IMG/VR virus record: IMGVR_UViG_3300048930_001142
Strand: one strand, 5' to 3'
Source of the DNA: a virus
Length of the DNA stretch: 37,992 bases
Position 1 is the stretch's first letter. Each line of letters opens with the position of its first letter. The position numbers and the translations under genes were made by a program. A model generated the notes under the pieces. That model searched no databases, was not told where the DNA came from, and saw only the letters and a list, made by a program, of their open reading frames with translations. Below are positions 1-37,992 of this stretch, one piece after another.

Positions 1-135
1 TGTGGACCCAGTCTGTGTGGACCCAGTCTGTGTGGACCCAGTCTGTGTGGACCCAGTCTGTGTGGACCCAGTCTGTGTGGACCCAGTCTGTGTGGACCCA
101 GTCTGTGTGGACCCAGTCTGTGTGGACAGAGACTG
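1..135 (+). repeat. 15-bp tandem array: 8 perfect copies of TGTGGACCCAGTCTG plus one degenerate copy TGTGGACAGAGACTG; continuation of the array at the window end
   Basis: Read directly. Positions 1-120 are exact 15-nt periodicity and 121-135 is a variant unit. Same unit and phase family as 37851-37992. Confidence 0.95.
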
Positions 136-4090: not shown

Positions 4091-4502
4091 GTCGACCTGA
4101 GCCTCTCAAGCGCTAGCTGGTGGTAGAGGGCAAGCTCGTCGGCCAAAAGTGAGTCGATGGCCTCGATCGTCCAGTGAAAGACAAAGGCCAGGTCGGCCTT
4201 CACCTCAAGAAGTGCCCGTCTTCCCGCCGGCAGCTCCCCTAGGGAGCAAGGCCTAAAAAACCAGCCACCTTGTCAGACACCTTGCGGTAGTCGGCAAAGT
4301 CCAGCTCCCGCACCTCGTCGGGGCTCCACTCGGCCAGGTGGCTGATCAGATGCAAGGTCTTGGCGGCCTCGCTGTCGTGACAGTCGACCATCTCGAGGTC
4401 TTTTACCTTGGCCCTTCTCAGCTCGATGGTGCGCACCAGCCCCCGGCCGGAAAGCTCGACGGGATAAGAAAGCTCGATTACCTCTTTTTTCATGCCCTTC
4501 AT
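4072..4502 (-). CDS. Frameshift-extended tail assembly chaperone (gpE+E'-like), requires -1 slip at 4254-4260
   Basis: Hand translation of the -1 frame after GGT TTT TTA stays open (FFRPCSLGELPAGRRALLEVKADLAFVFHWTIEAIDSLLADELALYHQLALERLRSTWPISK) until TAA at 4072-4074, overlapping the tape-measure start. Confidence 0.6.
4239..4502 (-). CDS. Tail assembly chaperone (P2 gpE-like, short product)
   Basis: 87-aa ORF between the tube and tape-measure genes. It ends just after a T TTT TTA slippery heptamer. Confidence 0.7.
   Translation of the reverse strand: MKGMKKEVIELSYPVELSGRGLVRTIELRRAKVKDLEMVDCHDSEAAKTLHLISHLAEWSPDEVRELDFADYRKVSDKVAGFLGLAP
4254..4260 (-). promoter_or_regulatory. Candidate -1 programmed ribosomal frameshift site (T TTT TTA)
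   Basis: X XXY YYZ heptamer in the zero frame near the 3' end of the chaperone ORF, at the conserved chaperone/tape-measure position. Confidence 0.6.
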
Positions 4503-5017
4503 CCTCTCAAGAGGGCAGCCTTGACGGCTGCCAGTTGGTCGACGCCGTTGATGCGGCGCACCATGTTGTCGGCGTCGATCTCAACCAGCACCTCTTCGGC
4601 ATGCGCGTAGCGGTAGTAGGTGCAGTAGAGACGAAACTTCATGGCAGTCGTCTCGCCGGCCTTCCAGGTGCCAAAGTCGATCTCGGTGATGACGCCCCGC
4701 ATATGACAGCTGACGGGAATGGCCAGCGTATGCCGCTTGAGGGCTCCCCTGACGTGCAGCGCGATGGGGCCGCCCTCCTGGAAGCCAAGCTGCTGGATTA
4801 CAAAGCGGTCGTACTCGCCAAGCGTAAACTCGGCCTCGAGCTTTTCCATGCCCATCTCGATGGGAATGGGCACGTCCATGCCGCCGGCGCGGTAGTCTTC
4901 GACCTTGTAGGTGAGCTTTGGCAAGACGATCTCGTCGACCATGCCGGCGTAGCCGCGGCCGTCGACAAAGAGCGTAAAATGCGTGAGCTTCTGCGGAAGG
5001 TTGTTAAGCAGCGTCAC
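4499..5017 (-). CDS. Contractile tail tube protein (P2 FII-like)
   Basis: 172 aa. LPQKLTHFTLFVDGRGYAGMVDEIVLPKLTYKVEDYRAGGMD matches the P2 FII N-terminus pattern (LPRKLKYLNLFNDGDNYMGVVESLTLPKLTRKLENYRGGGMN). Confidence 0.9.
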   Translation of the reverse strand: MTLLNNLPQKLTHFTLFVDGRGYAGMVDEIVLPKLTYKVEDYRAGGMDVPIPIEMGMEKLEAEFTLGEYDRFVIQQLGFQEGGPIALHVRGALKRHTLAIPVSCHMRGVITEIDFGTWKAGETTAMKFRLYCTYYRYAHAEEVLVEIDADNMVRRINGVDQLAAVKAALLRG

Positions 5018-5020
5018 GTT

Positions 5021-6184
5021 TTAAAAGACCTCCTTCACGTGGTCGTCCGACAGCAGCGAGCGAAAGGTGATCCGCTCGGCCGGATAGGGCGGCGTAAACT
5101 CGTAGTCAAACGTGACGTGGCCATCTGTGATCTGGGAGATCGTGTTGACCTCGGGGTCTATCCAGCAGTGACCGCCGAGGATTGCCTCCTGGGCCTTGAG
5201 GTCGCGAAAGTAGTTGTTGATGCTCTCTGTGACCTGAGCGACGTAGCTCTTGGTGATGTTGCGGTCGACGGCCCAAAGGTGGCTAGCCAAGATCGCGTCA
5301 TCGATAAAGTCGCGCAAGCGGCGCACGTTGATAAACTTGTGCCGGCTGTCGAGCGCATCGGCCTCATCGTAAAGGGTCCGGTTGCCCCACAGGCGAAAGC
5401 CCTGCTCGTTCACGAATGTGGCGATTTTGTTTTTGTTCAAAAGGTTGGCGCCGGACTCGCCCGACGAGGGGTCCAAGGAAAACTCGATGGGATGGGTCAC
5501 TCCGACCACCGACGAGCAAAGCCGGTTGGACGGCGACACCCAAAACCCAAGCTGAGCGTCGGTCTTGGCGATCAGGGCGGCTGCGAGAGCCGAGCCGCCG
5601 ACGACCCCGATCGGAGCGGCAAGCCGGACGTTGGGATAGATGGGATAGAGCCTCGAGCCGCGAAGACTTTGAAAGCTCCCGATCACCGCCTGCAGGTCGC
5701 CGCTGCCGGGGCCCTCAATCGGTGCCACAGCACGCAGCCTCGTTGCCACAACGCTCAGGGCGGCCCTCACCGACTCGTCGGCTGAAAACTCGGGCGCGAT
5801 CACAAGGCGCGGCTGGGCGCCAAGCGCAGCCTTGGCTTTGAGCAGAGCGTATACCCCTGTCAGCTCGCCTTGGCCACCCGCCACCTGAAAAGCCAGAGCG
5901 TCGGCCTCGCCAGGCCCGACGGTGACGACCACGCAAACGGCCGGCGTCTCCTCGTAAATCGCGGCCAGCGTCTTTGGCAAACTCCCTGGGGCATCGAGTC
6001 CCCCGAAAAGCTCTCTGGCCTCTCTCGCCCCTCTGACAAGAAAGGGCGTGTGGGCTGTCACTTTGTCCGACAGAGCCGACGTGCCGACGACGCCGATGAC
6101 CGACGTGGCAGGGGTTCTCACCCCCGGGGCAGCTCTCGTCGTGACCGGCACGACCTCGATTCCATGCCAAAAACCTTCAGCCAC
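5021..6184 (-). CDS. Contractile tail sheath protein (P2 FI-like); GTG start
   Basis: 387 aa immediately upstream of the tube gene. Size and order are typical of myovirus sheath genes. Confidence 0.85.
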   Translation of the reverse strand: MAEGFWHGIEVVPVTTRAAPGVRTPATSVIGVVGTSALSDKVTAHTPFLVRGAREARELFGGLDAPGSLPKTLAAIYEETPAVCVVVTVGPGEADALAFQVAGGQGELTGVYALLKAKAALGAQPRLVIAPEFSADESVRAALSVVATRLRAVAPIEGPGSGDLQAVIGSFQSLRGSRLYPIYPNVRLAAPIGVVGGSALAAALIAKTDAQLGFWVSPSNRLCSSVVGVTHPIEFSLDPSSGESGANLLNKNKIATFVNEQGFRLWGNRTLYDEADALDSRHKFINVRRLRDFIDDAILASHLWAVDRNITKSYVAQVTESINNYFRDLKAQEAILGGHCWIDPEVNTISQITDGHVTFDYEFTPPYPAERITFRSLLSDDHVKEVF

Positions 6185-17331: not shown

Positions 17332-17669
17332 ATGACCTCTCCCCTGGAAAGCTCGGCCAAGGCGTCGTCGATGGCCCTTGTGAGCACTTCTTCGACCTCG
17401 GCTGGCTCGCCAAGCAGAGCCAGGGTGGGCGCTTTAGAGGCTGGGATGGCAAGAAGCCTGGCCTTGGCCGCCATGACGGCCGCCTTCCAGAGCTTTTTCA
17501 CCTCGTCGACTGGCACGAGCTGACGCTCTTTCTCGAGCAGCTCCAGCTCGAGCTTGTCGGCTCTCACCTTGGTGAGCCGCACCTGCTCGGCCTCGAGGGC
17601 TCCTCCTTTGTGTTCTTCCCTCAAAGCCTCACTCCGGTGGAGGTTTGCAGACGGACAGTCGGCAGCCAC
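17328..17669 (-). CDS. Terminase small subunit-like protein (coiled-coil part only; no HTH seen)
   Basis: 113-aa ORF coupled to terL. LELELLEKERQLVPVDEVKKLW resembles the Nu1-type oligomerisation region. Its 5' 49 nt overlap the recombinase ORF, so the start is uncertain. Confidence 0.5.
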   Translation of the reverse strand: MAADCPSANLHRSEALREEHKGGALEAEQVRLTKVRADKLELELLEKERQLVPVDEVKKLWKAAVMAAKARLLAIPASKAPTLALLGEPAEVEEVLTRAIDDALAELSRGEVI

Positions 17670-19213
17670 CTGGTGTCGACCTCGGCGTCGTCGATTTTAA
17701 GATAGGCGTAGGTCTGGTCGACGGCGCTGTGATTCATTTTGAGCTGAATACTACGGATATCGGCGCCATCTTCGTAGGCAAACTTGGCCCAAGAGACTCT
17801 GAGACTGTGGGCTCTTCTTTGGCTTCCCCCGGCAGTGATCGGGGTGATGCCGGCCTTGTCAAAAAGGCTACTGATGCGGCGACAGCTGGTCGAGATGCCA
17901 AGCGGCTTGTCTTTGACCTCGAGAGAGGCCGAGAAAAGGTAGGCCTCGGGAGGAGCGTCGTGAAAGTAGCGCTCGATATAGGCCTCGACCATGTCGGCGA
18001 CTGGCTTTGAGACGCCGACGGTGTAGCGATCGGCGTTGGCCTTGCTTTCAATGGCGAGGCTTTTGCCGCGGCGTGTTTCGAGGAGGTCGCACTTTCTGAG
18101 CGACAAAAGACCGCTGTGGCGCATGCCGACGCCGGCCAGGAGGTAGACGGCCAAAAGATCGCGGTGGGCCTTCCAGCGCTGGGGGATGTTCAAAGGCGGC
18201 GTCGACTTCAAGATCTCCTGGGCCGTGGCGATGACCTTGGCGGTTTCGTCTCGGGTGAGCGCCTCGGTCTGGACCTTTCTCTCGACCTTTGGAACCTTGA
18301 GCCTTTGAAGCGGGTTTTTGGGGATCTCCTCTTCGCCAGCGCAAAACCCCAGGAAGGCTTTGACGGCCGACAGCTCGCTGGCGATGGTGGCCGGCTGCTT
18401 GCCAAGCTCACTTCGGTACTGCTTGAAGGCCACGACGCTTTCCAGCGTGAACTTGTCGAGACGGTCGACGGGGCTTTCGAGCACGCTGGCCGCAAAGCTT
18501 CGGTAGGTGCCCAGGTGCTTGCGGTAGAGCTTGGCGGTGGCGGGCTTTCTTTGGCCGGAAAGAAAGATCTCGAGAAGCTGCTCGAGCCTCTCTTCGGGCG
18601 TCTCTGCGAGGTTTCCAAGCCTGGCAAGGCTTGGGGCCGGCTCGGACTTGTCGCCCTCCACCTTGCGCGCAAGCGGTCGCTGGTGGCCGCGCGTGTAGCG
18701 ATGGGCAGCGCTCACCGACACGCCGTACTTTTTTGCCAAGGCCTCCAGCGTTGCGCCCTCTCGCCTCTCGCGCTGCATGTCGGAGATAAAGCTTTTGCCA
18801 TGGGCCTCGGCGATGCTGGGAAGCCGTCGGGGGCGGAGCTTTTTCTGATGAGCGTTCATGACCCCGGTGAGAAACGAGCTGGTCATCTGCTCTTTGGGAT
18901 CAAGCAGCAGGTTTTCATCAAGCAGCCGCACGTAGAGGCCGTCTTTCCTGCGCTTCTCGTAGAGGTCGACGAAGAGGTCGATGTCGAGCCTGGGGTGGTT
19001 CAGGCCATCGATCACCACCACACTGCGGTCTTCGGCCGTCAGCATCAGCGAGCGAAAGGAGGTATTCTTTTCGAGTACCACCCGCACCTTGTTCATGCGC
19101 TCGTCCAGGTGCGGCAGCATCTTGCCGGGATGCCGCCTCTCCTCCTGCGCCCGGTAGATCCGCTTCATCTCCTCCAGTGAGCCACCAAGCGACACGTAGT
19201 AGATCGTCAGCAC
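17621..19213 (-). CDS. Recombinase fusion: resolvase-like N-terminal domain + HTH + complete tyrosine recombinase; start revised to GTG at 19213
   Basis: AAGGAG lies 8 nt upstream of the GTG. N-terminal motifs: IYYVS, VVVIDGLNHPRLDIDLF, GLYVRLLDENL, HTH ATLEALAKKYGVSVSAAHRY. C-terminal motifs: SAM-like core-binding domain, GMRHSGLLSLRKCDL, AHSLRVSWA (HxxR), DQTYAYL (Tyr). Confidence 0.75.
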   Translation of the reverse strand: MLTIYYVSLGGSLEEMKRIYRAQEERRHPGKMLPHLDERMNKVRVVLEKNTSFRSLMLTAEDRSVVVIDGLNHPRLDIDLFVDLYEKRRKDGLYVRLLDENLLLDPKEQMTSSFLTGVMNAHQKKLRPRRLPSIAEAHGKSFISDMQRERREGATLEALAKKYGVSVSAAHRYTRGHQRPLARKVEGDKSEPAPSLARLGNLAETPEERLEQLLEIFLSGQRKPATAKLYRKHLGTYRSFAASVLESPVDRLDKFTLESVVAFKQYRSELGKQPATIASELSAVKAFLGFCAGEEEIPKNPLQRLKVPKVERKVQTEALTRDETAKVIATAQEILKSTPPLNIPQRWKAHRDLLAVYLLAGVGMRHSGLLSLRKCDLLETRRGKSLAIESKANADRYTVGVSKPVADMVEAYIERYFHDAPPEAYLFSASLEVKDKPLGISTSCRRISSLFDKAGITPITAGGSQRRAHSLRVSWAKFAYEDGADIRSIQLKMNHSAVDQTYAYLKIDDAEVDTRWLPTVRLQTSTGVRL

Positions 19214-19689
19214 CCGACCTTGCTCCTTCCCCAGCACCCTTTTGCGAATAAATAGCGCCCGATCCCTACCCCTTTCTTCGTCGTGAGAAGTAGGAGGTAA
19301 GACAGGGTTACTCCGAGGGGCCGGACGCCCGCCGAAGATGAGACGCAAAACCCTTGAGCCACAAGGAGCCCTCGCGCACGGCCATGCATTCTGTCGGGAA
19401 ATGAACCTATGCCGCTAAGATAGCAGACAAAAGACGGCATGTTTACGGCTTTTGCCAAAGCGGCCACAGCTTCCGACACAGTGCGTAGAAAGCGTGCAAA
19501 CGGGTCCTTTCCCACCCCCCTTTTGCGGTGCCGGCGGCGCCGCAGCAGCTCACTAGAGAATGAAAAATTTTGCGGACTTGCGTCCCTGCGCAGGAATTAG
19601 GATGGTTTCACATATATTTTTGCTAGGAAGGGTCGGTTGAGCTAAAGTATATATAAAATAGTGCCGACTAGAGAGAGGAGGCTCACCTG

Positions 19690-23822: not shown

Positions 23823-26800
23823 ATGCCCAAGCACCACCAACTCTCCTCGGCTCTGACCGGGCTGTGGCTCGCCCTGGCGCCGCTGGCCGCCAGCGCCGGC
23901 CCATTCCCGCTCTCCTACGGTGGCCGCCTGACAGGTCCGACCGGCAGCCCGCTTGCGGGGCCCGTCGATCTTGCCGTCCATTTCTTCCGAAGTGAGACCG
24001 GCGGCAGTCCGCTGCTGGGCGAGCCAGTCGTCGTCCCCGCAGTGACCCTCCAGGAGGGGGTCTTTCAGCTGACGCTCGATCTCCCGGTCGAGGATTACAG
24101 CGCGATCTTCCCCTCGGCTGAGACGGCCGCCTATATCGAGATCACCGATCAAACCAACGCGCGCACCTATCCTCGGCAGCGCTTTGCAGTCGTGCCGCTG
24201 GCAGCCCGGGTGCCGGTCGACGGCAGCACCGTGACGTTCGACGAAAGCGGCCGCCTGACCGCCACGCTCCCGACTGCTGGCGCGACTACACCGGGCGTGA
24301 TCAAGGCGACCAATGCCTTTGTCGAAGTCGACGCTGGTGGCGACATCACCGCCATCAAACAGGCGCAGAGCTTCTCCGGCACCCTCAGCGGCGACGTCAC
24401 CGGCACGCAGAATGCCACGGTGGTCACCAAGATCCGCGGCAAGGCCTTCACCGACACTCTCGATGCCAGCAACGACCAAAAGGTCATCAAGTGGGACAAC
24501 GCCACCAGTAGCTTCAAGCTCATGAACGACGTTGTCAGCGGCGGCCTGAGCACCGGCGACGTCACGTCGACCATCATCGCCGACGGGACCATCGTAAATG
24601 CCGACATCAGCGCTTCGGCCAACATCGCCGCCAGCAAGATCGGCACGGGAGCAGTCGACAACACGCACTTCAATTATTTGGCGGGCCTGACCTCGGACCC
24701 CCAAGCCCAACTCAACGCCAAGCAGGCGGCCATTACTGCGGCCACCGTCCTTCCGGTCGGCTCGCTCACCAGCGACCTTCAAGCGGGTGTGACGCTTGAC
24801 GGCTATGGCAGCGGTGCCGGGCAAACCGGCGAGCTGCGCTTTGAGGAGCGTGACGGGCTCGAGAATAACTACGTCGGCCTCAAGGCGCCCGACGCGGTTG
24901 CAAGCAATCAAATCTGGACTCTGCCTGCCGCAGACGGCACGGCCGGCCAGCTGCTGTCGACCAATGGCTCGGGTGTGCTGACGTGGGCGACCGCGACCAC
25001 GGCCAGCTCGTCCGACACGTTCATCAACAAGACGATCAACGCCGACAACAACACGATCAGCAACATCGAGGACTCGGAGATCAAGGCGGGTGCCAATATC
25101 GCCCGCGCCAAACTGGCGTCCGGCACAGCCTCCCACGTGCTCGTCAACGACGGCAGCGGCGTGATGAGCTCCGAGGCGCAGCTTGCGATCTCCCGCGGCG
25201 GCACCGGGGCCGCCAGCGCCAGTGCGGCGCTCACCAACTTGCTGCCGTCGCAGACCGGCAACTCCGGCAAGGTGCTCTCGACCGACGGCACGGCGGCCTC
25301 GTGGACTGCTCTCAGCACCACCAACTGGAACACCGCCTACGACGACCGCCTGAAATGGGACGGCGGCGCCACCGGTCTCGTGGCCGCCACCGGCCGCGCC
25401 AGCCTCGGCCTCGGCACGGTCGCCACGCTGGATGTCGGCACCGCCGCCGATCAAGTGGTGCAGCTTGACGCTACCGCCAAGCTGCCAGCCGTCGACGGTT
25501 CGGCCGTCTCAAACCTCACTCCCGCCAACCTCAGCGCGGCCGTGGCCGTCGCCAAGGGCGGCACCGGCGCGACGACCGCCGACGGAGCGCTAACGAGTCT
25601 TCTGCCGGCCCAGACCGGCAACTCCGGCAAGGTGCTCTCGACCAACGGCAGCACGACGTCGTGGCTTGCTCTCAGCGCCACCGACTGGAACACCGCCTAC
25701 AGTGATCGGCTGCAGTGGGACGGTGGCGCCAGCGGCCTCAATGCGACGACCGCCCGCACGAGCCTCGGCCTCGGCACAGCTGCCACGCTGAACGTCGGCA
25801 CTGCCGCGAGCAATGTCGTGCAGCTAGACGGCACCGCCAAGCTGCCGGCTGTCGACGGTTCCCAGCTCACAGGCGTCGTCACGACGGCTGCGGTCGACAG
25901 CGCCGGCGCCGTGATGAACGGCGACTTCGGCTCAGACGGCCTAATGGCACGCACCGCGGCAGGGACCTACAGCGTCGTCGCCGACAACTCTGCAAACTGG
26001 AACACCGCCTACACAGACCGCATGAAATGGGACGGCGGCAGCACCGGCCTGGTCGCCGCCACGGCGCGCACCAGCCTCGGCCTCGGCACGGCTGCCACAC
26101 TGGATGTCGGTACCACCGCGAGCAAAGTGGTCCAACTCGACGGCAGTGCCCGGCTGCCGGCCGTCGACGGCTCGCAGCTCACCAATCTGCCGACAGCAAG
26201 CCTCACCTGCCCCACGGGCTATATCCTGGTGCCGGGCAATGCGAGCTTCACCAACGCAAGCTTCTGCGTCATGAAGTACGAGGCCAAAAAGGACGGTACC
26301 ACCGGCCAAGCAGTGTCGACCTCTGCGGGCACCCCCTGGGTCAACGTCTCCTGGTATGAGGCGCAAAGCGCCTGCAAGCGGGTCGGCGGCCACCTCGTCA
26401 ACGAAGGCGAGTGGATGACCATCGCCCGCAACATCGAGGCCACCGCCATTAACGATATCGACTCGGCCGCCGGTATTCAGCTTGCCACTGGCCACTCTGA
26501 TAACTCTCCGGCCAGCGCCTTGGCAGCAGTGGCCGACCCCTCGCTCTCGAGCTGCACGCTCACGTTGGAACTATCGAATGCCAGCAACAACTCCTGCGCC
26601 CTGCGTGGCCCCGGCACCAATGCTGGCAACAGCACCGACTATGGCTACTACGGCACGGGCAACGGCTACAGCACAGCCTATTCGGCTGGCGCCGCCAACA
26701 AATCGCAAATGCGCACCCACGTCCTCAGCAACGGCAATGTCATCTGGGACCTCGCCGGCAACGTCTGGGAATGGACGGATGCACAGTGCGACACGACCAG

Positions 26801-27065
26801 CTGGTACACCACCGGATGGGTCGAGTGGAACAACGCCAACGTGACCGACTGGGAAAAGCTGGTAGCCGGCCCGAGTGGCTCGCTGACCTCCTCTAACGGG
26901 GCCGGTCAGTATTATGGGTGCACCGCGAGTGGCAATGCCCTGCTCCGCGGCGCCTACTGGAACGATGGCTCGTACGCCGGCGTGTTCGCCGCCTATTTGG
27001 TCAATGGGCCGTCGGACGTCTACAGCGTCGTGGGCTTCCGCTGCGCCTTCTCCAATGCCCACTAA
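23823..27065 (+). CDS. DGR target protein: signal-peptide-like N-terminus, fibre-like repeats, C-terminal FGE-sulfatase/C-type-lectin-fold domain carrying the VR
   Basis: 1080 aa. N-terminus MPKHHQLSSALTGLWLALAPLAASAGP. Repeated NWNTAY.DR.KWDGG..GL.A.TAR.SLGLGTAATL.VGT modules. C-terminus GEWMTIARN...GNVWEWTD...LRGAYWNDGSYAG...GFRCAF. Confidence 0.9.
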   Translation: MPKHHQLSSALTGLWLALAPLAASAGPFPLSYGGRLTGPTGSPLAGPVDLAVHFFRSETGGSPLLGEPVVVPAVTLQEGVFQLTLDLPVEDYSAIFPSAETAAYIEITDQTNARTYPRQRFAVVPLAARVPVDGSTVTFDESGRLTATLPTAGATTPGVIKATNAFVEVDAGGDITAIKQAQSFSGTLSGDVTGTQNATVVTKIRGKAFTDTLDASNDQKVIKWDNATSSFKLMNDVVSGGLSTGDVTSTIIADGTIVNADISASANIAASKIGTGAVDNTHFNYLAGLTSDPQAQLNAKQAAITAATVLPVGSLTSDLQAGVTLDGYGSGAGQTGELRFEERDGLENNYVGLKAPDAVASNQIWTLPAADGTAGQLLSTNGSGVLTWATATTASSSDTFINKTINADNNTISNIEDSEIKAGANIARAKLASGTASHVLVNDGSGVMSSEAQLAISRGGTGAASASAALTNLLPSQTGNSGKVLSTDGTAASWTALSTTNWNTAYDDRLKWDGGATGLVAATGRASLGLGTVATLDVGTAADQVVQLDATAKLPAVDGSAVSNLTPANLSAAVAVAKGGTGATTADGALTSLLPAQTGNSGKVLSTNGSTTSWLALSATDWNTAYSDRLQWDGGASGLNATTARTSLGLGTAATLNVGTAASNVVQLDGTAKLPAVDGSQLTGVVTTAAVDSAGAVMNGDFGSDGLMARTAAGTYSVVADNSANWNTAYTDRMKWDGGSTGLVAATARTSLGLGTAATLDVGTTASKVVQLDGSARLPAVDGSQLTNLPTASLTCPTGYILVPGNASFTNASFCVMKYEAKKDGTTGQAVSTSAGTPWVNVSWYEAQSACKRVGGHLVNEGEWMTIARNIEATAINDIDSAAGIQLATGHSDNSPASALAAVADPSLSSCTLTLELSNASNNSCALRGPGTNAGNSTDYGYYGTGNGYSTAYSAGAANKSQMRTHVLSNGNVIWDLAGNVWEWTDAQCDTTSWYTTGWVEWNNANVTDWEKLVAGPSGSLTSSNGAGQYYGCTASGNALLRGAYWNDGSYAGVFAAYLVNGPSDVYSVVGFRCAFSNAH
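25226..26180 (+). repeat. Intragenic repeat modules of the target gene (two copies of about 360 nt plus a partial third; approximate limits)
   Basis: Repeated DNA/protein blocks ALT.LLP.QTGNSGKVLST.G...SW.ALS...WNTAY.DRL.WDGG... . The aactggaacaccgcctac-type cores lie near 25323, 25683 and 25997. Confidence 0.75.
26936..27049 (+). other. DGR variable repeat (VR)
   Basis: 114 bp matching TR 29408-29521, with 11 mismatches that all fall at TR adenines. Confidence 0.92.
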
Positions 27066-27104
27066 GTCCTTGGTTTCTTGGACCTTGGTCCTTGGTGTTG
27101 GGGT

Positions 27105-27123
27105 CTGGGGGCGTAGCCCCCAG
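27105..27123 (+). promoter_or_regulatory. GC-rich hairpin downstream of VR/IMH (CTGGGGGC-GTA-GCCCCCAG), candidate DGR target-recognition stem-loop
   Basis: Perfect 8-bp inverted repeat with a 3-nt loop, 55 nt after the end of VR homology. Confidence 0.6.
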
Positions 27124-27130
27124 CGGCTCC

Positions 27131-27165
27131 ATTTCGGAAATTTCCGAAATTTCGGAAATCATGCC
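27131..27165. repeat. Palindromic TTCSGAAA repeat block 1 (9-bp period AAATTTCSG)
   Basis: atttcggaaatttccgaaatttcggaaatcatgcc. Contains overlapping 16-bp perfect palindromes. The 33-nt core is identical to the one in block 2. Confidence 0.9.
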
Positions 27166-27227
27166 GAAACAGCACGTTAACGTAACATGCTAATCTAATT
27201 GACTATGCGTGTTTTATGATCAGCCGT

Positions 27228-27295
27228 CATTTCCGAAACTTCCGAAATGTCACTTCGGCAACTTCGGAAATTTCCGAAATTTCGGAAATCATGCC
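27228..27295. repeat. Palindromic TTCSGAAA repeat block 2 (upstream of the HTH gene)
   Basis: catttccgaaacttccgaaatgtcacttcggcaacttcggaaatttccgaaatttcggaaatcatgcc. Confidence 0.9.
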
Positions 27296-27366
27296 AGTCC
27301 GGAATGTTTCCCCTTTTGAGCGAGCATGCCCCCTGCTAGGGTACTCTGCACTCCTAATCAAGGATC

Positions 27367-28056
27367 ATGTCGCCCGCGATGCCACGCCGCAGCCAGCCCC
27401 ACTCCCAGCTTGAGGTAAGCGTCGATACTGCCGCGAAATCTCTCGGTGTTTCTGAGCGCATGGTTCTGAACTACATCAAGGCCAGACAGATCAAAGCGCT
27501 GCGTGTCGGCAAGCGCTGGTTTGTCGACCTCGCCTCGCTGGAGGCCTTTCGACAGGCCAGCGGTCTCACCCAAAGGGACCCTCAGGCCATTTCCGAAACT
27601 TCGGAAATTTCCGAAATTTCGGAAACGCTTCCGAAGTCGCCTGCGACCACAGGCAGCGAAGGCCCGCCGCGCCCAAGGCGAAGCTCCTCCGGGAAGAACC
27701 TCGATGGGCTAGCCTGCTACCGGCTGTGCCTGGAGGCTTTCCGGATGCCGATGTGGGCAGACGCCGACAAGCTCCGCTTCGGCCATCGACTGCGTGATCT
27801 GCAGGGCGCGATTCTCGAGCAGCTCGGCTCGGGCTTCTATTCGTATGGCGCCGAGAAGCGCGCCTACTATGACCGTTCCCGGGGACTGATCGGCGCGGCG
27901 CTGGCGCTCGTCTACAGCGATCCCGATGCGAGGCTGCGTTGGGCCAGCGAAGTCGCCTTTCTGGAGGGTGATGTGCTGCCCGCGTTTGCGTCGTTGATCA
28001 AGAAAATCGAGCGCGGTCAGGATCGCGAAGGCCGGGGACGACGCCATGAGCGCTAG
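27367..28056 (+). CDS. DGR-associated HTH protein: excisionase/MerR-type HTH N-terminus + helical C-terminal domain (possibly four-helix-bundle/Avd-like)
   Basis: 229 aa. HTH: VSVDTAAKSLGVSERMVLNYIKARQIKALRVGKRWFVDLASLEAF. The C-terminal ~110 aa are helical (ACYRLCLEAFRMP...LRDLQGAILEQLGSG...). Lies between the target and avd; its stop overlaps the avd start. Confidence 0.7.
   Translation: MSPAMPRRSQPHSQLEVSVDTAAKSLGVSERMVLNYIKARQIKALRVGKRWFVDLASLEAFRQASGLTQRDPQAISETSEISEISETLPKSPATTGSEGPPRPRRSSSGKNLDGLACYRLCLEAFRMPMWADADKLRFGHRLRDLQGAILEQLGSGFYSYGAEKRAYYDRSRGLIGAALALVYSDPDARLRWASEVAFLEGDVLPAFASLIKKIERGQDREGRGRRHER
27588..27636. repeat. Palindromic TTCSGAAA repeat block 3 (inside the HTH gene, translated as ISETSEISEISET)
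   Basis: catttccgaaacttcggaaatttccgaaatttcggaaacgcttccgaag. Confidence 0.9.
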
Positions 28057-28423
28057 AAGCCCCAAGATCCTCGCCGACAGCTACCAATTGACCGTCATGG
28101 TGTTTGGCAGAACGCGCAGCTTTCCCAAACACTACCGCCCGACACTTGGTCGCCGCCTGGAGGACCGCGCGATCGACCTGACGTCTGCCGTCCGCGTCGC
28201 AAGCCTTGCCAAAGGCGGCGGTAAAGACTCGCGGCGGACTGCCTCCTTGGAGAGCGCCTCGGAGCTTCTGGACGAGATCCGGATTCTGCTTCAGCTCGCG
28301 CATGACATGCAGATCATTCCGACTGCCGGCTATGCCGAGCTGAGCGAGCTGACCGCCGAGGTCGGTCGACAAATCGGTGGCTTTGGAAAGTTCGAGGCGG
28401 CTGCCCGTGACCACACTCCTTGA
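28046..28423 (+). CDS. avd: DGR accessory variability determinant (Avd)
   Basis: 125 aa, basic and helical. The C-terminus LTAEVGRQIGGF parallels Bordetella bAvd LIAEVGRILGSW. Lies immediately upstream of, and overlapping, the RT. Confidence 0.8.
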   Translation: MSARSPKILADSYQLTVMVFGRTRSFPKHYRPTLGRRLEDRAIDLTSAVRVASLAKGGGKDSRRTASLESASELLDEIRILLQLAHDMQIIPTAGYAELSELTAEVGRQIGGFGKFEAAARDHTP

Positions 28424-29354
28424 CGAGGTGACGGCGTTTGGGAACCTTGCGCGGGCGTTTCAGCTCTGCGCACGCGGCAAGCGTGCCTCGACCGGCTACC
28501 AGCGCGCCATGTTTGCGCACGGCGAGAAGCTCGTCGCCATGCGCGGCAGGATCCTATCAGGCCAGTATCGCTGGGGACGCTACCGGGAGCTCTTGGTGAG
28601 GGACCCCAAGTCGCGTCGCGTATTGGCGGCTCCCTTTATGGACCGCGTCGTCCATACAGCCATCCACGAGATCATCGAGCCGATCCTCGATCCCCTGATA
28701 CCGGAGAGCGTGTATGCCTGCCGTCATGGCAAAGGCAACCGGAAGGCCGCGACCGATCTTCTGGAGGTGCTTTGCGAGCATGGCAAAGACCGCTTCGTCA
28801 TCAAGCTCGACGTCGCGCAATACTTTGCCTCGATCCGGCATGACGTGCTGCTCGCCAAGCTTTTCGAGGCGCTGCCAGACCGGAGTCTCGAGCCTCTTCT
28901 GGCCTCGCTCCTGCGAAGCCATGCCGAGTATGCCTCTCGAGGGTACGGCATCCCGATCGGAAACCTGACGTCCCAGGTGTTTGCCAACTTCTATCTCGTC
29001 TCCGCCGACCGTGTCGCCTCCGAGCTGCTCGGAGGCGGCTTCTACTTCCGCTACATGGACGACATGGTTCTCGGGGGCCGCAATAAGTCGGTGGTCCTCA
29101 ACGCGGCCGATGCTGTGACCCAGCACGTCGAAAGCGACCTGAGGCTTTCGATTCCCTACTTCAAGCGGATGCCGCTCGGTAACGCGCCCGTGCCGTTTCT
29201 AGGATACGTGCTCGATCACAGCGGCTATAGAATTCTAAGCCGCAACAAGAGGAGGTTTATCAAACGAATGCGACGCCTGGAGCGTTCGGGAGCCCGCCCG
29301 AGCCGGATGGCGCAGAGCGAGTTGTCGTTTCGTTCTTTTGAGAATTTGTTATGA
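28377..29354 (+). CDS. DGR reverse transcriptase (GTG start at 28377, or in-frame GTG at 28407)
   Basis: 325 aa. LDVAQYFASIRHDVL, GIPIGNLTSQVFANFYL (DGR-type motif) and FYFRYMDDMVLGG (YxDD). Confidence 0.92.
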   Translation: MALESSRRLPVTTLLDEVTAFGNLARAFQLCARGKRASTGYQRAMFAHGEKLVAMRGRILSGQYRWGRYRELLVRDPKSRRVLAAPFMDRVVHTAIHEIIEPILDPLIPESVYACRHGKGNRKAATDLLEVLCEHGKDRFVIKLDVAQYFASIRHDVLLAKLFEALPDRSLEPLLASLLRSHAEYASRGYGIPIGNLTSQVFANFYLVSADRVASELLGGGFYFRYMDDMVLGGRNKSVVLNAADAVTQHVESDLRLSIPYFKRMPLGNAPVPFLGYVLDHSGYRILSRNKRRFIKRMRRLERSGARPSRMAQSELSFRSFENLL

Positions 29355-29407: not shown

Positions 29408-29521
29408 TGCCCTGCTCCGCGGCGCCAACTGGAACAATGGCACGAACGCCGGCGTGTTCGCCGCCAATTTGAACAATGGGCCGTCGAACGTCAACAGCAA
29501 CGTGGGCTTCCGCTGCGCCTT
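29408..29521 (+). other. DGR template repeat (TR), adenine-rich AAY codons
   Basis: 114 bp homologous to the VR. 22 adenines, 11 of them substituted in the VR. Starts 54 nt after the RT stop. Confidence 0.92.
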
Positions 29522-30888: not shown

Positions 30889-31821
30889 TCAACCTAGGTA
30901 TTTTTCCTCGAGCCAAGACACTGCTGCGGTGAGCTTGACACTTTGAGCCCACTCCATGAGGTCGGCTAGCGCGGCCGTCTCATCTGTTGCAACGCGGCGC
31001 GGAAGCACCTCATCACAGCGAAAATAGGCATTTCCCCCGAGAATCTGTCGGCACTGGTAGTCGGCAATCCCGACGTTGGCGTCGATCATTAGGCTTGTCA
31101 TCGGCTGAGCCCATTGGGCAAAGCCCCAGTCCAGGGTCTTGCCGGAGATCCACTGCGGGCTCCTCCCGGTTGAGAGCGAGAAGACGCGCAGCGAGAGGAG
31201 ATCCTGACGGCCGACGTCGGGGTTGATGGCGAGCGCCACGGCCGCCATCGCCGGGTTGTTGCACCCGACCCCGCCGTCGACATAGCCCTGGTAGCTGGGA
31301 AAGTAGGTCGGCGCCGCGCTCGATCGCAAGGCTACGTCGACTGTCCGTTCCGCGCCGTCTGAATCGGCTCCGGGGTAGTTGTGAAAGAACTTCATTTTCC
31401 ACGTCCGCGGCGAGCCCTCGTTGTCGAGGTCGAAGCTTGGAACGAGCACGCGCCGCTTCAAGCCCGAGAGCAGCCCTTCGCCGAAGATCCGCTCAAGGAC
31501 CCGCTTAAGGTAGCCCTGGTCATAGTCAGCGCCGATGACCTTGCCCATGTCCTGGAGGTTGTCGCACCAGGAGTCGTCAAAGACCTTGGCGCCATGCTTT
31601 TCGAAGAACGTGACAAGCTCGCTTGCCCCCATCCCCGAGGCCAGCGCCATGGCGCTGATCGCCCCGATCGAGGTTCCCGCAAAAAGACGCACCGAGGGCA
31701 AGAACGCCGGCACCGCTTCCGCCAGCCGAGCCAGGATCACAGCTTGATAGGCTCCACGGATACCGCCGCCATCGAGCGCCAAGATTCGATAGGGTCGCAT
31801 CCTCGGCTCAACACGCATCAA
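30889..31821 (-). CDS. Patatin-like phospholipase
   Basis: 310 aa. ILALDGGGIRG (oxyanion loop), GTSIGA (GxSxG nucleophile), VDGGVGCNNP (catalytic Asp). Confidence 0.88.
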   Translation of the reverse strand: MMRVEPRMRPYRILALDGGGIRGAYQAVILARLAEAVPAFLPSVRLFAGTSIGAISAMALASGMGASELVTFFEKHGAKVFDDSWCDNLQDMGKVIGADYDQGYLKRVLERIFGEGLLSGLKRRVLVPSFDLDNEGSPRTWKMKFFHNYPGADSDGAERTVDVALRSSAAPTYFPSYQGYVDGGVGCNNPAMAAVALAINPDVGRQDLLSLRVFSLSTGRSPQWISGKTLDWGFAQWAQPMTSLMIDANVGIADYQCRQILGGNAYFRCDEVLPRRVATDETAALADLMEWAQSVKLTAAVSWLEEKYLG

Positions 31822-31879: not shown

Positions 31880-32452
31880 TCAGGCCGACTCCAGCGCGAC
31901 ATGAAACAAACGCCGCATCCAGCCACGCCCGAAGGTCTTGAACGTCGCAAGCCCTGCGTAGCGCTCGGCACGCGCAGCCATGAAGTCGACAACAAGCTTC
32001 TGGGGGTCAGCTTTCGCGGCAGCGCCAAGCGTCAGTGACCCTATAACGCCGTCGACTGTGACCCCCAAGGCCTTCTGCAAGGTCCGGATGGCAGGCTTCA
32101 CCCCTTGATTGATAGCCGCGTCAAACACTGCCAGACGCAGCTCAGCTGGCAGCTCGCTGCAGCGCGCCGCATCCCAAAAATCACGCCGGTAGATAGCGCG
32201 GGCCTCGTCTGGGGTCAGATCAAGGATCCCCTGCCGGCCAAGCTTGGGGTAGGCCGCAAGCGAGATGCCGTAGTTTGTCAGCCCGCCCGGGTCGCGCGGA
32301 TCGTCAACCAGCCCGCCTTCCAGCTCCAAAATGATCGAGACGGCCTTGCGAAACTGCACCGCGCCCCCCCCCAGAGCCCACGATTTCGTGTGATCTCCAA
32401 GATTTTGGAACATTCCTTGCTCTTTGTCTCGCCGGCGCCCCTGGGCCGTCAC
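31880..32452 (-). CDS. GH108-type lysozyme / endolysin with C-terminal peptidoglycan-binding region (start may be the internal ATG at 32413)
   Basis: ILELEGGLVDDPRDPGGLTNYGIS...YRRDFWD...VFDAAINQG...LGVTVDGVIGSLT fits the GH108 + PG-binding pattern. Confidence 0.8.
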   Translation of the reverse strand: MTAQGRRRDKEQGMFQNLGDHTKSWALGGGAVQFRKAVSIILELEGGLVDDPRDPGGLTNYGISLAAYPKLGRQGILDLTPDEARAIYRRDFWDAARCSELPAELRLAVFDAAINQGVKPAIRTLQKALGVTVDGVIGSLTLGAAAKADPQKLVVDFMAARAERYAGLATFKTFGRGWMRRLFHVALESA

Positions 32453-35786: not shown

Positions 35787-35890
35787 GGTCCACAGAGACT
35801 GGGTCCGCACAGACTGGGTCCGCACAGACTGGGTCCGCACAGACTGGGTCCACACAGTCTGGGTCCACACAGACTGGGTCCACACAGACT
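35787..35890 (-). repeat. Inverted-orientation array of the 15-bp repeat: 6 full units + 1 degenerate, three units with a G variant
   Basis: gggtccgcacagact x3, gggtccacacagtct, gggtccacacagact x2. This is the reverse complement of the unit at the window ends. It lies 23 nt downstream of the ParB-like stop. Confidence 0.95.
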
Positions 35891-35912
35891 GTGCTCAGCA
35901 TGACAGCGCAAG

Positions 35913-36491
35913 TCATAGCAGCCCAGGTGCAGTAGGTTTCGCTATAATTTCATCTGGTTCAGCCACACGATAAGCCCATGTTTGGCGCAAGCCGGCGTCG
36001 TATTCTCGGACAACCGAAATAGCTCCAACGTCAATCAGCCTTTTGATGAGTGGAGCAATCGCGGTGCTTCTCAAATCGAACAGCTTTGCATAGGAGCTAT
36101 GAGGCAGCTCTATCAGGCCAGTATTCGGATCACGCATCTCGCGAATAGCGAAATAATAGCCGGCATCGCCTCGAAGCAAACGAGTAATTACCGTTATCTC
36201 CCGGGCACGAGCTGATAAACTGCCATCTTCTTGCGAAGAAGCTCGCGTATTCTCCGTTTCTTGGTCCTTACGTGCGCTGTCTGCCCTTATCGCATCGGCT
36301 ACATGATGATGAACATCCGATGTTTGCTCTTCGACTCTTTCGCGAGCATTAGCGGCCACAGTGAGATGCTCGTCAGGACGACGAGCTTGCCCCTGACGAT
36401 CTATCTTGCGAAGCTTCTGCGGATGACTTCCAATGCGCCCCTGCTTCGCCAGCTTTTTTAGCATTTCCTGAGCATCAGGCATTTCTAACAC
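35913..36491 (-). CDS. Small ParB-like / centromere-binding adaptor candidate (winged-helix-like C-terminus)
   Basis: 192 aa. Overlaps the parA stop by 17 nt. Charged N-terminal half. C-terminus: YFAIREMRDP...SYAKLFDLRSTAIAPLIKRLIDVGAISVVREY. The assignment rests mainly on position. Confidence 0.5.
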   Translation of the reverse strand: MLEMPDAQEMLKKLAKQGRIGSHPQKLRKIDRQGQARRPDEHLTVAANARERVEEQTSDVHHHVADAIRADSARKDQETENTRASSQEDGSLSARAREITVITRLLRGDAGYYFAIREMRDPNTGLIELPHSSYAKLFDLRSTAIAPLIKRLIDVGAISVVREYDAGLRQTWAYRVAEPDEIIAKPTAPGLL

Positions 36492-37692
36492 CTCGCTTCT
36501 CTACGGCAACTCTCCGAGTCGCTGGCTTTTTGCGAAGAGTAACTGCATCGAGGCCGATAATCGCCTTAACAAGCTTATCGAAGTCATCGGCAACACCATT
36601 GCGTCTTCCGCAATCGTACAGACCACGACCAAAATGAATCGCGTTCTTAAGTTCAGCCGAAGTGCGGATGTAGGTGCTATACAGCTTATCCGGATAATCC
36701 TGATAAAGTCGCGACATGTAATGCACGCTTGTGACTTCGCGTGCATCGAAACGCCCAAATATGATTCTTTCCTTCATCGTTTGACGAATCGATGGCCACT
36801 GATTTTTTAAGCGTTCGAGCTCACCAAGTGTCTGCGTAAGCCCTGATATGCACAGCTTGTCTGGATAAACCGGCAAAAGAACAGTGTTCGCAAAGCACGC
36901 AATTGCGGCGTTCGTCGAGGAAAGAGCAGGTGCACAGTCGAAAATGATGTAGTCATACTGTTGCAGAACTTCCGCAAATTTTAGGCGAAACGCCCGCTCC
37001 ACATTTATAGCGCTACGCTGGAGCGTAATCTCAAGATTGCTATTGAGAAGAGTGCTTGGGATGAGATGCAGATTCGGCGTAACCTTGACGATGAGGTCAC
37101 TGACTGTGACAGCAAGCTCTCCACGCTTCTGCTGATCGAACAAATCAGCAAGGATAGCTGTATCCTCATCGACCTCGATTCCATATTGTTCTAGTTCGAA
37201 CGCCGTAGTTAAGTTTGACTGCGGGTCCGCATCGACGACGAGTACTTTCCCGCCGAAAGCAGAGATTCGCGTCGATAACACGTAGCTCGTCGTAGTCTTA
37301 GCTGCTCCCCCCTTGGTAATTTGAACCGCAATTACATGCGCGGTATGCTCTGGCTGATCCAGAGGGAACAGAAAACCTCGGTCAGCAAAAATCGCTCGCA
37401 CATCGTCTGGATGAAGAGTGCGGGCAGCGCCGCTCTTGCTCGTAGAGCGCTCGAAATGCCGAGCCGACGCTTTTTTTAGAATATCGCTTAGTGCCGCTGT
37501 CGATACGCCGATCGTATCGCGCAAGTCTGTTGAGCGGAGCCCAAACGGATTTCTGCAAGCACCACCAGCAAAATCGACGTCTGCCTTCTGGGCTGACTCC
37601 CCTCCTTGCCTCTGCTCACCTTGATCGTCAGCCGCCCCACTTGGGTTGTTATGGTCCTTGCGATCAAGTCGCATTCTTCGCTGCGTCACCAT
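36475..37692 (-). CDS. parA: ParA/SopA-type partition ATPase (long, type Ia-like with N-terminal extension)
   Basis: 405 aa. Deviant Walker A: VIAVQITKGGAAKTTTSYVLS. VLVVDADPQSNLT. Size and N-terminal region as in P1 ParA / F SopA. Confidence 0.88.
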   Translation of the reverse strand: MVTQRRMRLDRKDHNNPSGAADDQGEQRQGGESAQKADVDFAGGACRNPFGLRSTDLRDTIGVSTAALSDILKKASARHFERSTSKSGAARTLHPDDVRAIFADRGFLFPLDQPEHTAHVIAVQITKGGAAKTTTSYVLSTRISAFGGKVLVVDADPQSNLTTAFELEQYGIEVDEDTAILADLFDQQKRGELAVTVSDLIVKVTPNLHLIPSTLLNSNLEITLQRSAINVERAFRLKFAEVLQQYDYIIFDCAPALSSTNAAIACFANTVLLPVYPDKLCISGLTQTLGELERLKNQWPSIRQTMKERIIFGRFDAREVTSVHYMSRLYQDYPDKLYSTYIRTSAELKNAIHFGRGLYDCGRRNGVADDFDKLVKAIIGLDAVTLRKKPATRRVAVEKRGVRNA

Positions 37693-37850: not shown

Positions 37851-37992
37851 CCCAGTCTGTGTGGACCCAGTCTGTGTGGACCCAGTCTGTGTGGACCCAG
37901 TCTGTGTGGACCCAGTCTGTGTGGACCCAGTCTGTGTGGACCCAGTCTGTGTGGACCCAGTCTGTGTGGACCCAGTCTGTGTGGACCCAGTC
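37851..37992 (+). repeat. 15-bp tandem array (9 full units + 7 nt) running off the window end; upstream of parA
   Basis: cccagtctgtgtgga repeated exactly from 37851 to the last base. Confidence 0.95.

Follow-up and report, generated by a model that had tools for sequence, protein, structure and literature searches.

We found that an open reading frame (ORF) in the 37,992-nt virus record IMGVR_UViG_3300048930_001142 of IMG/VR encodes a new accessory protein of a diversity-generating retroelement (DGR), and that this protein is accompanied by a putative cognate cis-array of short repeats. The ORF, here called ORF-X or X, encodes 229 aa and lies between the target gene of the DGR and the accessory gene avd; the whole stretch of DNA analysed is referred to as the window. 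ORF-X and the repeat arrays most likely form a multimeric nucleoprotein complex, as we infer from the sequences and predicted structures described below. Among the functions considered, transcriptional control (autoregulation or gating) of the unit made up of X, avd, the reverse transcriptase (RT) gene and the template repeat (TR) is tentatively ranked first, at a little less than an even chance. DGRs are described as needing only an RT, Avd (or HRDC, MSL or CH1), TR RNA, and a variable repeat (VR) with its initiation of mutagenic homing (IMH) sequence and hairpin. How DGR activity is controlled, and how the cDNA locates the VR and takes its place, is still unsettled according to a recent report (PMC12875486). 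ORF-X and its arrays offer a testable handle on how DGRs switch on or find their target.

ORF-X (27367..28056, + strand, pI 9.75) is located where the original prediction, made from the letters of the window alone, had placed it: between the target stop (27065) and avd (28046..28423, + strand). The TAG of ORF-X (28054-28056) and the ATG of avd (28046) overlap by 11 nt, and X is translationally coupled to avd. Word-indexed searches recovered 7 clusters when the whole protein was the query and 11 for a profile of its C-terminal domain. An exhaustive profile search of 1.84 billion representatives returned 199 proteins at E<=1e-10, of which 83 reached E<=1e-30; the majority are 180-260 aa long with both domains present. 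The family amounts to about 80-200 clusters (50% identity), all from uncultured or environmental sequences, and the existing names of its members are only 'excisionase family DNA binding protein' or 'helix-turn-helix domain-containing protein'. Because gene callers translate the arrays, entries of the family in databases often have wrong starts; FRN/FGN-rich extensions (N-terminus of P0076) and a spurious 106-aa ORF (locus L157, 3673-3993) arise in this way. Another entry, P0008, has a truncated N-terminus.

Searches for related loci, which are numbered L001 and so on, yielded 4 genome, 4 viral and 19 metagenome loci. When loci were scanned with an Avd hidden Markov model (HMM), avd was found directly 3' of ORF-X in 36 of 40. 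Of the four exceptions, L029 is interrupted by the end of its contig; L031, L033 and L038 are short metagenomic contigs with ORF-X or its C-terminal domain and with avd undetected directly 3', possibly as rearranged or decayed copies, and in L033 an RT fragment follows directly. In the gene tables of L001-L012, and of L156 and L157 with an ORF-X of only ~30% identity, X sits immediately 5' of avd and RT, and the stop and start codons overlap in most cases. The VR lies directly 5' of X in most loci, so the usual order is target/VR, X, avd, RT and TR. The absence of the ORF from related DGR loci, which had been named at the outset as an outcome that would speak against the idea, is thus not what was found. 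Some X loci are chromosomal, as in L001, a 99.5-kb contig of a metagenome-assembled genome (MAG) with housekeeping genes beside the locus, and the MAGs bearing X loci are annotated as Proteobacteria and Silvanigrella. The RT of the window has 42-64% identity with RTs of other X-bearing DGRs and no more than 38% with other viral DGR RTs, therefore X marks an RT clade; the C-terminal domain of X was absent from all 79 viral DGR loci that were taken from other RT clades and lack X. ORF-X is a real and conserved DGR component, and an accessory gene in the operational sense of Wu et al. 2018.

The excisionase/MerR-type helix-turn-helix (HTH) first read at the N-terminus of ORF-X was borne out by Pfam, in which HTH_17 matched residues 18-63 above cut-off (E 7.6e-9, 36.1 bits against 27); the NCBIfam model TIGR01764 'excise' scored 26.8 bits, under its cut-off of 28.8. 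AlphaFold2 with 16 sequences predicted a confident winged HTH at residues 16-65, a disordered linker at residues 70-111 (predicted local distance difference test, pLDDT, about 40) and a confident helical C-terminal domain. In the window, the winged HTH (residues ~16-65) corresponds to 27412-27561 and the C-terminal domain (residues ~113-224) to 27703-28038, both on the + strand. Foldseek matched the N-terminal domain with Pukovnik Xis 4j2n (template modelling (TM) score 0.78-0.80, 40-42% identity), RdfS, TraN, DNA-bound RacA and DNA-bound BldC. In L007 (2451-3034), ORF-X occurs as separate HTH (86 aa) and C-terminal domain (103 aa) genes, split at a CCAGCCA repeat in the linker; either a frameshift or a natural arrangement in two genes would account for the split.

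The C-terminal ~110 aa had been expected to be helical, and the domain alone was indeed predicted as all-helical (AlphaFold2 with 50 sequences, pLDDT 96.6, predicted TM-score 0.87). This 110-aa domain is invariant across the family, its invariant residues are concentrated in LGxGYYSYGxxKxxxYxxARxxxG at the junction of helices 2 and 3, and the pI of the family is 9.37 +/- 0.48. The predicted fold is a four-helix bundle whose best TM-scores in the PDB were with 2gsc (a pentameric 23S-IVS-like protein, 0.60-0.70), Avd 4dwl and 2rld. Aligned with Bordetella phage Avd 4dwl, the domain gave TM-scores of 0.65 (by query, TMq) and 0.70 (by target, TMt) and a root-mean-square deviation of 2.9 over 116 columns, and its top match in BFVD was an 'Avd-like protein' (TMq 0.63, E-value not significant). 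None of the Foldseek E-values of the C-terminal domain was significant (0.11-4), as is common with simple bundles. At the sequence level, Pfam gave nothing at E<=1 for 50 C-terminal domains, and no match of ORF-X to bAvd (PF22296) or 23S_rRNA_IVP (PF05635); hhalign of the domain against Avd profiles gave probabilities of 4% (19 Avds) and 1.2% (83 Avds); and the Avd HMM found no ORF-X even at E<=10. PDB sequence searches with the whole protein and with two C-terminal domain profiles returned the Xis match and noise only, and there were no MutS-like matches for ORF-X in Pfam or Foldseek. Avd paralogy was not found at the level of sequence. Because the fold matches Avd/IVS proteins but the sequence signal is absent, 'Avd-like fold' is a reasonable description while 'Avd paralog' is unproven; of the DNA-targeted Avd paralog first proposed, the resemblance in fold has held up (TM 0.6-0.7, with non-significant E-values), and the paralogy itself is only weakly supported.

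The second component is the set of repeat arrays. The octamer TTCSGAAA has 24 strand-matches in the window, compared with 2.91 +/- 1.91 in shuffled sequences, and none of 100 shuffles reached 24. Twenty-one of the 24 matches, counted on both strands, fall within 27132-27625, and only 3 are found elsewhere in the 38-kb window; the 21 include 12 on the + strand, in agreement with the 12 octamers in about 500 bp counted earlier. Tandem Repeats Finder returned period-9 arrays at 27131-27159, 27254-27289 and 27589-27625, and together with the octamer count it supports the three blocks of 9-bp repeats that had been described. Block 1 (27131..27165) consists of three 9-bp units ATTTCSGAA and a CATGCC tail common with block 2, and it starts 7 nt behind a GC-rich hairpin 3' of the VR, read from the sequence as CTGGGGGC-GTA-GCCCCCAG (27105..27123, + strand; stem 27105-27112 / 27116-27123). 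Block 2 (27226..27295) has two looser units followed by four 9-bp units, and a 33-nt core is identical between block 1 (27133-27165) and block 2 (27263-27295). Block 3 (27589..27636), with four 9-bp units and one TTCCGAA, lies in frame in the DNA coding for the ORF-X linker, and translation confirmed that it is read as ISETSEISEISET. An octamer scan of the window found no TTCSGAAA array near the TR.

To place these arrays in the family, the spacer between VR and X and the linker-coding DNA were compared in 23 non-redundant loci. About 17 lineages have arrays of a core half-site (TTCCGAA/TTCGGAA, TTCCGGAA, or CGGAAAT/CGGAAGT) with a spacing of 9-11 bp, usually beginning right behind a GC-rich hairpin that follows the target stop. 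Comparable hairpins, some with T-runs, precede the arrays in L004, L007, L012, L026, L027 and L032. Most VR-X spacers contain the four core pentamers at 19-49 per kb and some linkers at up to 74 per kb, compared with ~1-8 per kb (16 in one locus) elsewhere in the same loci. Likewise, the densest 120 nt contained 7-14 core pentamers in X loci with a canonical array and 1-7 (median 3) in the 79 X-less viral DGR loci. The arrays in linker DNA recur independently in the clade of the window, L027, L028, L030/31, L032 and, most strikingly, L156 (about 15 sites), and they leave an FSE/SEN/FPK/FRN/FGN peptide signature in several distant family members. Within each locus, the upstream and linker arrays have a common half-site variant, TTCCGAA in the window, L015 and L027 and TCCGGAA in L032; L030/31 have 21-bp AACTCGG(TAA) repeats in both arrays, and L029 has GTCCGGA arrays only upstream of X.

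Relatives with 93-94% identity differ in the number and orientation of units and keep the motif. For example, block 3 of L015 has one more in-frame 9-bp unit than that of the window, and the units of block 2 differ between the two in number and orientation. Such differences in copy number between close relatives, and the MITE-like arrays (miniature inverted-repeat transposable elements) reported in other DGR loci (PMC10907252), would fit selfish or slippage-prone repeats of the MITE or repetitive extragenic palindromic (REP) kind, without function and tolerated in an intergenic region and a disordered linker. We regard this explanation as very unlikely, since the octamers are nearly confined to one locus of the window, and the same core half-site is retained between proteins only ~30% identical. 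Furthermore, the 16-bp palindrome formed by the repeats occurs in 36 stretches of 2.9 million viral contigs, where multi-copy arrays with X are found only in the clade of this phage and the other occurrences are isolated single sites. The MITE-like arrays of Thiohalocapsa DGRs derive from terminal repeats of insertion sequences (PMC10907252), and given this origin they were rejected as the same phenomenon. A dispersed REP-like element, which the original prediction had allowed for, was rejected as far as the contigs permit, with 21 of 24 matches in one 500-bp stretch of the window and host chromosomes outside this test.

Many of the arrays can also pair with themselves. In the window, L001, L004, L020 and L157, single-strand folding exceeded that of shuffled sequences (z -3.3 to -7.7), and work on BPP-1 describes a cruciform 3' of the VR as required (PMC3240598). 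The arrays might then be structure-forming DNA or RNA (a cruciform or hairpin by the VR, or structure in a 5' untranslated region) or sites for a host factor, with X adjacent by coincidence. On the other hand, arrays of repeats in the same orientation showed no folding excess in L012 (z -0.6), L034 (z +0.6 and +0.75) and L007 (z -1.7) and still keep the half-site. Since half-site and helical-turn spacing are kept and pairing is not (z +0.75 to -7.7), protein recognition is favoured over pure DNA structure, and a cruciform-only explanation was rejected, the excess of self-complementarity being present in many loci and not in all. Also against structure or a host factor, the arrays are absent from the 79 X-less DGRs, and their motif variants are locus-specific, which favours a reader encoded in the locus; apart from X, the cassette encodes no protein that binds DNA sequence-specifically. 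Thus, structure or host-factor sites with a chance neighbour are an improbable account of the arrays.

Variation in the sites may be matched by variation in ORF-X. Where the sites are TTCCGAA or TTCCGGAA, the second HTH helix mostly contains ...VLNY/IINY..., and where they are variants (CTTCCGC, GTCCGGA, AACTCGG, TCCGGAAG), it contains ...IRTY/LRLY/VRNY/IRVY/IRSY.... The comparison, a small sample taken without phylogenetic correction, suggests that protein and site covary in the recognition helix. Because the repeats are not dispersed, are limited to X-bearing DGRs and covary with X, the early proposal that they are operators of ORF-X is well supported as a putative assignment.

The N-terminal fold raises the question of whether ORF-X is simply a phage excisionase, that is, the recombination directionality factor (RDF) of the tyrosine integrase encoded at 17621-19348, with the repeats as arm-type sites of attP. 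The matches to HTH_17 and the 'excise' family, PHROG excisionase matches (E 7e-5 to 3e-2), mycobacteriophage Xis as the best fold match and the presence of an integrase in the window all agree with this idea. However, ORF-X is 8 kb from the integrase, and its homologues stay 5' of avd-RT in loci with no integrase among the called genes (e.g. L001, L008 and L012). The excisionase reading also leaves aside the additional 110-aa domain kept throughout the family and the arrays missing from every one of the X-less DGRs. A phage excisionase was accordingly rejected on synteny, and we consider it the least credible of the readings weighed here.

We propose that ORF-X and the arrays control the transcription of the X-avd-RT-TR unit. 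In this model, the N-terminal Xis/BldC-type winged helix would recognise TTCSGAAA-type half-sites, which lie about one helical turn apart behind the VR hairpin, upstream of X and often in the linker-coding DNA of X. The C-terminal four-helix bundle, held on a flexible linker of ~45 residues, would oligomerise ORF-X, and several HTH domains could load cooperatively on one array and bridge separate arrays. The outcome would be negative feedback on, or gating of, the unit, in which the intragenic array would serve as an auxiliary operator or a roadblock. Transcriptional control is placed first because it is the usual function of an HTH protein whose gene opens an operon and has repeats upstream, and because the arrays are preceded by terminator-like hairpins. 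Behind these hairpins X is the first gene, and its stop overlaps the avd start.

Several observations weigh against transcriptional control. No consistent consensus sigma-70 promoter was found in or near the arrays of six loci (the window and five others). The scan for consensus promoters missed the candidate weak promoter TTGAGC-15 nt-TAGGGT (27316..27342, + strand), a speculative guess from phylogenetic footprinting in which the hexamers are kept and the spacer differs between the window and L015. The start of X lies at very variable distances from the last array, ~5 nt to ~330 nt and, in L020, 1.9 kb, which is looser than the usual operator-promoter geometry. X is intact in L010 and L017 with no array in the available upstream sequence, which would be odd for a pure autoregulator. 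Finally, the binding of ORF-X to the arrays is something we infer from sequence, and the only pointer to oligomerisation of its C-terminal domain is the likeness to pentameric Avd/IVS proteins. In these two loci unrelated genes are inserted 5' of X, in L010 an IS66-like transposase (2-1945, a reading of the translation) and in L017/L005 a PIN toxin module (174-563).

Some of the same observations fit a different function, which is ranked a close second and judged possible, though not probable. ORF-X could be a homing or architectural factor, in which case the complex of X and array would mark the 3' flank of the VR and help mutagenised cDNA to replace the VR. This could happen by recruiting Avd, RT and cDNA through the Avd-like C-terminal domain, by bending DNA or extruding the hairpin, or by pausing the replication fork and keeping the VR single-stranded. 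Excisionase-type HTH_17 proteins are classic architectural factors of recombination, and the best fold matches of the C-terminal domain are Avd/IVS bundles. The arrays lie 0-15 nt behind the VR-terminal hairpin in the window, L004, L007, L012, L026 and L032, their position relative to the start of X is as loose as described above, and X lacks arrays nearby only in L010 and L017, where it has no target next to it. L020 is the only split locus whose RT is intact, and there the arrays remain by the VR while X is 1.9 kb off. According to the recent report cited above, cDNA integration is still unexplained and favours lagging-strand templates, and a stem-loop may keep the target open for longer (PMC12875486).

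Against a homing factor, the arrays of L004 remain by X, 2 kb from the VR, though the RT of this locus is truncated; the DGR RT is cut to 185 aa, and the locus is therefore probably decaying. The insertion in L020 is co-oriented and is thus also compatible with a shared promoter. It appears that these two natural rearrangements point both ways, and no multi-target locus, in which one could see whether arrays follow every VR, was present among the loci examined. What was inserted differs between the two: L020 (2250-3960) has an AAA/PD-(D/E)XK-like ORF between the arrays and X, as read from the translation, and in L004 (3664-5790) the VR with its CCTTGG run is separated from the arrays by an antisense ORF and by a group II intron, which has its RT ORF at 4413-5492 and a domain V-like sequence near 5670. 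The C-terminal domain shows no sequence homology to Avd by hhalign or the Avd HMM. In addition, the same report found four core components to be enough for retrohoming of BPP-1 in E. coli, so that no such factor is generally needed (PMC12875486). Homing and autoregulation could both apply, since they are not mutually exclusive. It is conceivable, but on balance unlikely, that array-bound ORF-X is the first sequence-specific target-site factor of a DGR, marking the DNA 3' of the VR hairpin and either tethering Avd, RT and cDNA or acting as a roadblock that pauses replication. If so, the unexplained integration of cDNA in retrohoming would be directed by a protein in this clade.

Apart from X and the arrays, the cassette of the window has canonical avd, RT and TR. 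The avd product matches bAvd (E 1.2e-8), the PHROG 'Avd protein of DGR' (E 1.9e-16) and NCBIfam DivGenRetAVD (E 2.4e-12), and the RT (28377..29354, + strand) matches RVT_1 in Pfam (E 1.5e-16). The TR (about 29408..29521, + strand) matches the VR (~26935-27050) with A-to-N differences, as seen by tblastn. The target gene (23823..27065, + strand) encodes a tail-fibre-like protein of 1080 aa with a weak FGE-sulfatase match in Pfam, and the VR lies in its C-terminal CLec/FGE-sulfatase-like domain. Right behind the target stop, a run of NTTGG (CCTTGG-like) motifs (27066..27104, + strand) contains 4-5 motifs at ~8-nt spacing and was also reported by Tandem Repeats Finder in a period 7 row. Most ORF-X loci have this run behind the target stop, with 3-6 motifs per 50 nt in many and 2 in several, compared with a median of 2 and a maximum of 4 per 50 nt in the 79 control DGR loci; no such run is present next to the TR. 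Its positions include 27066-27104 in the window, ~5652 in L001, ~3667 in L004, ~2306 in L007, ~1801 in L020, ~728 in L027, ~2639 in L034 and ~3834 in L156.

PHROG matches show the replicon to be a temperate tailed phage, possibly maintained as a plasmid. The matches in the window include tape-measure and tail proteins, a major head/protease protein, portal, large terminase, a ParA-like protein and the tyrosine integrase, and ORF-X is present at 93-94% identity in four IMG/VR contigs. Perfect tandem arrays of the 15-bp unit TGTGGACCCAGTCTG are found in equal orientation at both ends of the window (1-127 and 37851-37992), with an inverted copy of the array at 35787-35891, and they flank the ParA-like gene (36475-37692). 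These TGTGGACCCAGTCTG arrays may serve a plasmid-prophage as iterons or as sites for partition, similar to a centromere, and their identity at both ends suggests that the contig is circular or terminally redundant. Just 3' of the DGR on the - strand, two ORFs were recognised by eye from their translations: a patatin-like phospholipase-looking ORF with a GGGIRG motif (30889-31821) and a lysozyme/peptidoglycan-binding-looking ORF (31880-32452).

Taken together, the results define a DGR clade that occurs both in phages and in the chromosomes of uncultured bacteria. It has two further conserved parts: a predicted sequence-specific DNA-binding protein of two domains, and arrays of its putative sites placed exactly at the junction of the VR and the accessory operon. 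Should ORF-X act as a regulator, no dedicated switch of DGR mutagenesis would have been described before it; should it act in homing, it would provide a direct experimental handle on target recognition and a route to programming DGR-based diversification tools. In the open-access literature, term searches of Wu 2018, Roux 2021, Doré 2024, Unlu 2026, the myRT paper and a Mobile DNA review found no HTH-type DGR accessory protein or arrays of this kind, and an HTH or DNA-binding accessory is not mentioned by Wu et al. 2018 (PMC5758913). The combination of a further protein component and a cis-element in one DGR clade therefore appears undescribed, the tentative PAG1-4 of Wu et al. standing outside this comparison.

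Like the known DGR accessories (avd, HRDC, MSL, CH1 and the tentative PAG1-4), ORF-X is small, encoded in the cassette and conserved within an RT clade, and like MSL it co-occurs with avd. However, ORF-X carries HTH_17 and not the MutS-like features of MSL, which was compared by description only. ORF-X is basic (pI 9.4), whereas the values given by Wu et al. are neutral for MSL (7.2 +/- 1.7), 6.9 for HRDC and acidic for CH1 (4.7) (PMC5758913). Avd, with a pI of 9.5 in the same source (PMC5758913), is as basic as the ORF-X family (9.4 +/- 0.5). The C-terminal domain of ORF-X is a predicted four-helix bundle of a size equal to that of the Avd/23S-IVS proteins (PF22296, PF05635; 4dwl, 2gsc, 2rld), yet it has no sequence relationship with them, and a canonical avd sits next door.

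With Xis/RDF proteins (Pukovnik Xis 4j2n; RdfS 8dgl), ORF-X has in common the DNA-binding fold, Pfam HTH_17, and several short repeats about one helical turn apart as putative sites. Unlike them, it is unpaired with an integrase or att site, has an additional conserved helical domain of 110 aa and is syntenic with avd-RT. Several small winged-helix proteins of the Xis, RdfS, RacA and BldC type load as multimers on tandem or repeated sites. The N-terminal domain of ORF-X matches the fold of BldC and RacA (6ama, 5i44; TM 0.58-0.76) at only 17-20% identity, and BldC, which binds arrays of direct repeats as head-to-tail multimers, is the closest mechanistic analogy for ORF-X. BldC differs in being a single-domain developmental regulator of Streptomyces, with neither a C-terminal bundle nor the context of a retroelement. 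The arrangement of the sites may be compared with the auxiliary operators lac O2 and gal OI, known from DNA looping, in which clusters of sites are likewise placed upstream of and inside the first gene of an operon. In contrast to those operators, the clusters described here are arrays of 3-15 half-sites, and they are embedded in the DNA coding for the linker of what would be their own regulator, an arrangement that is unusual in itself.

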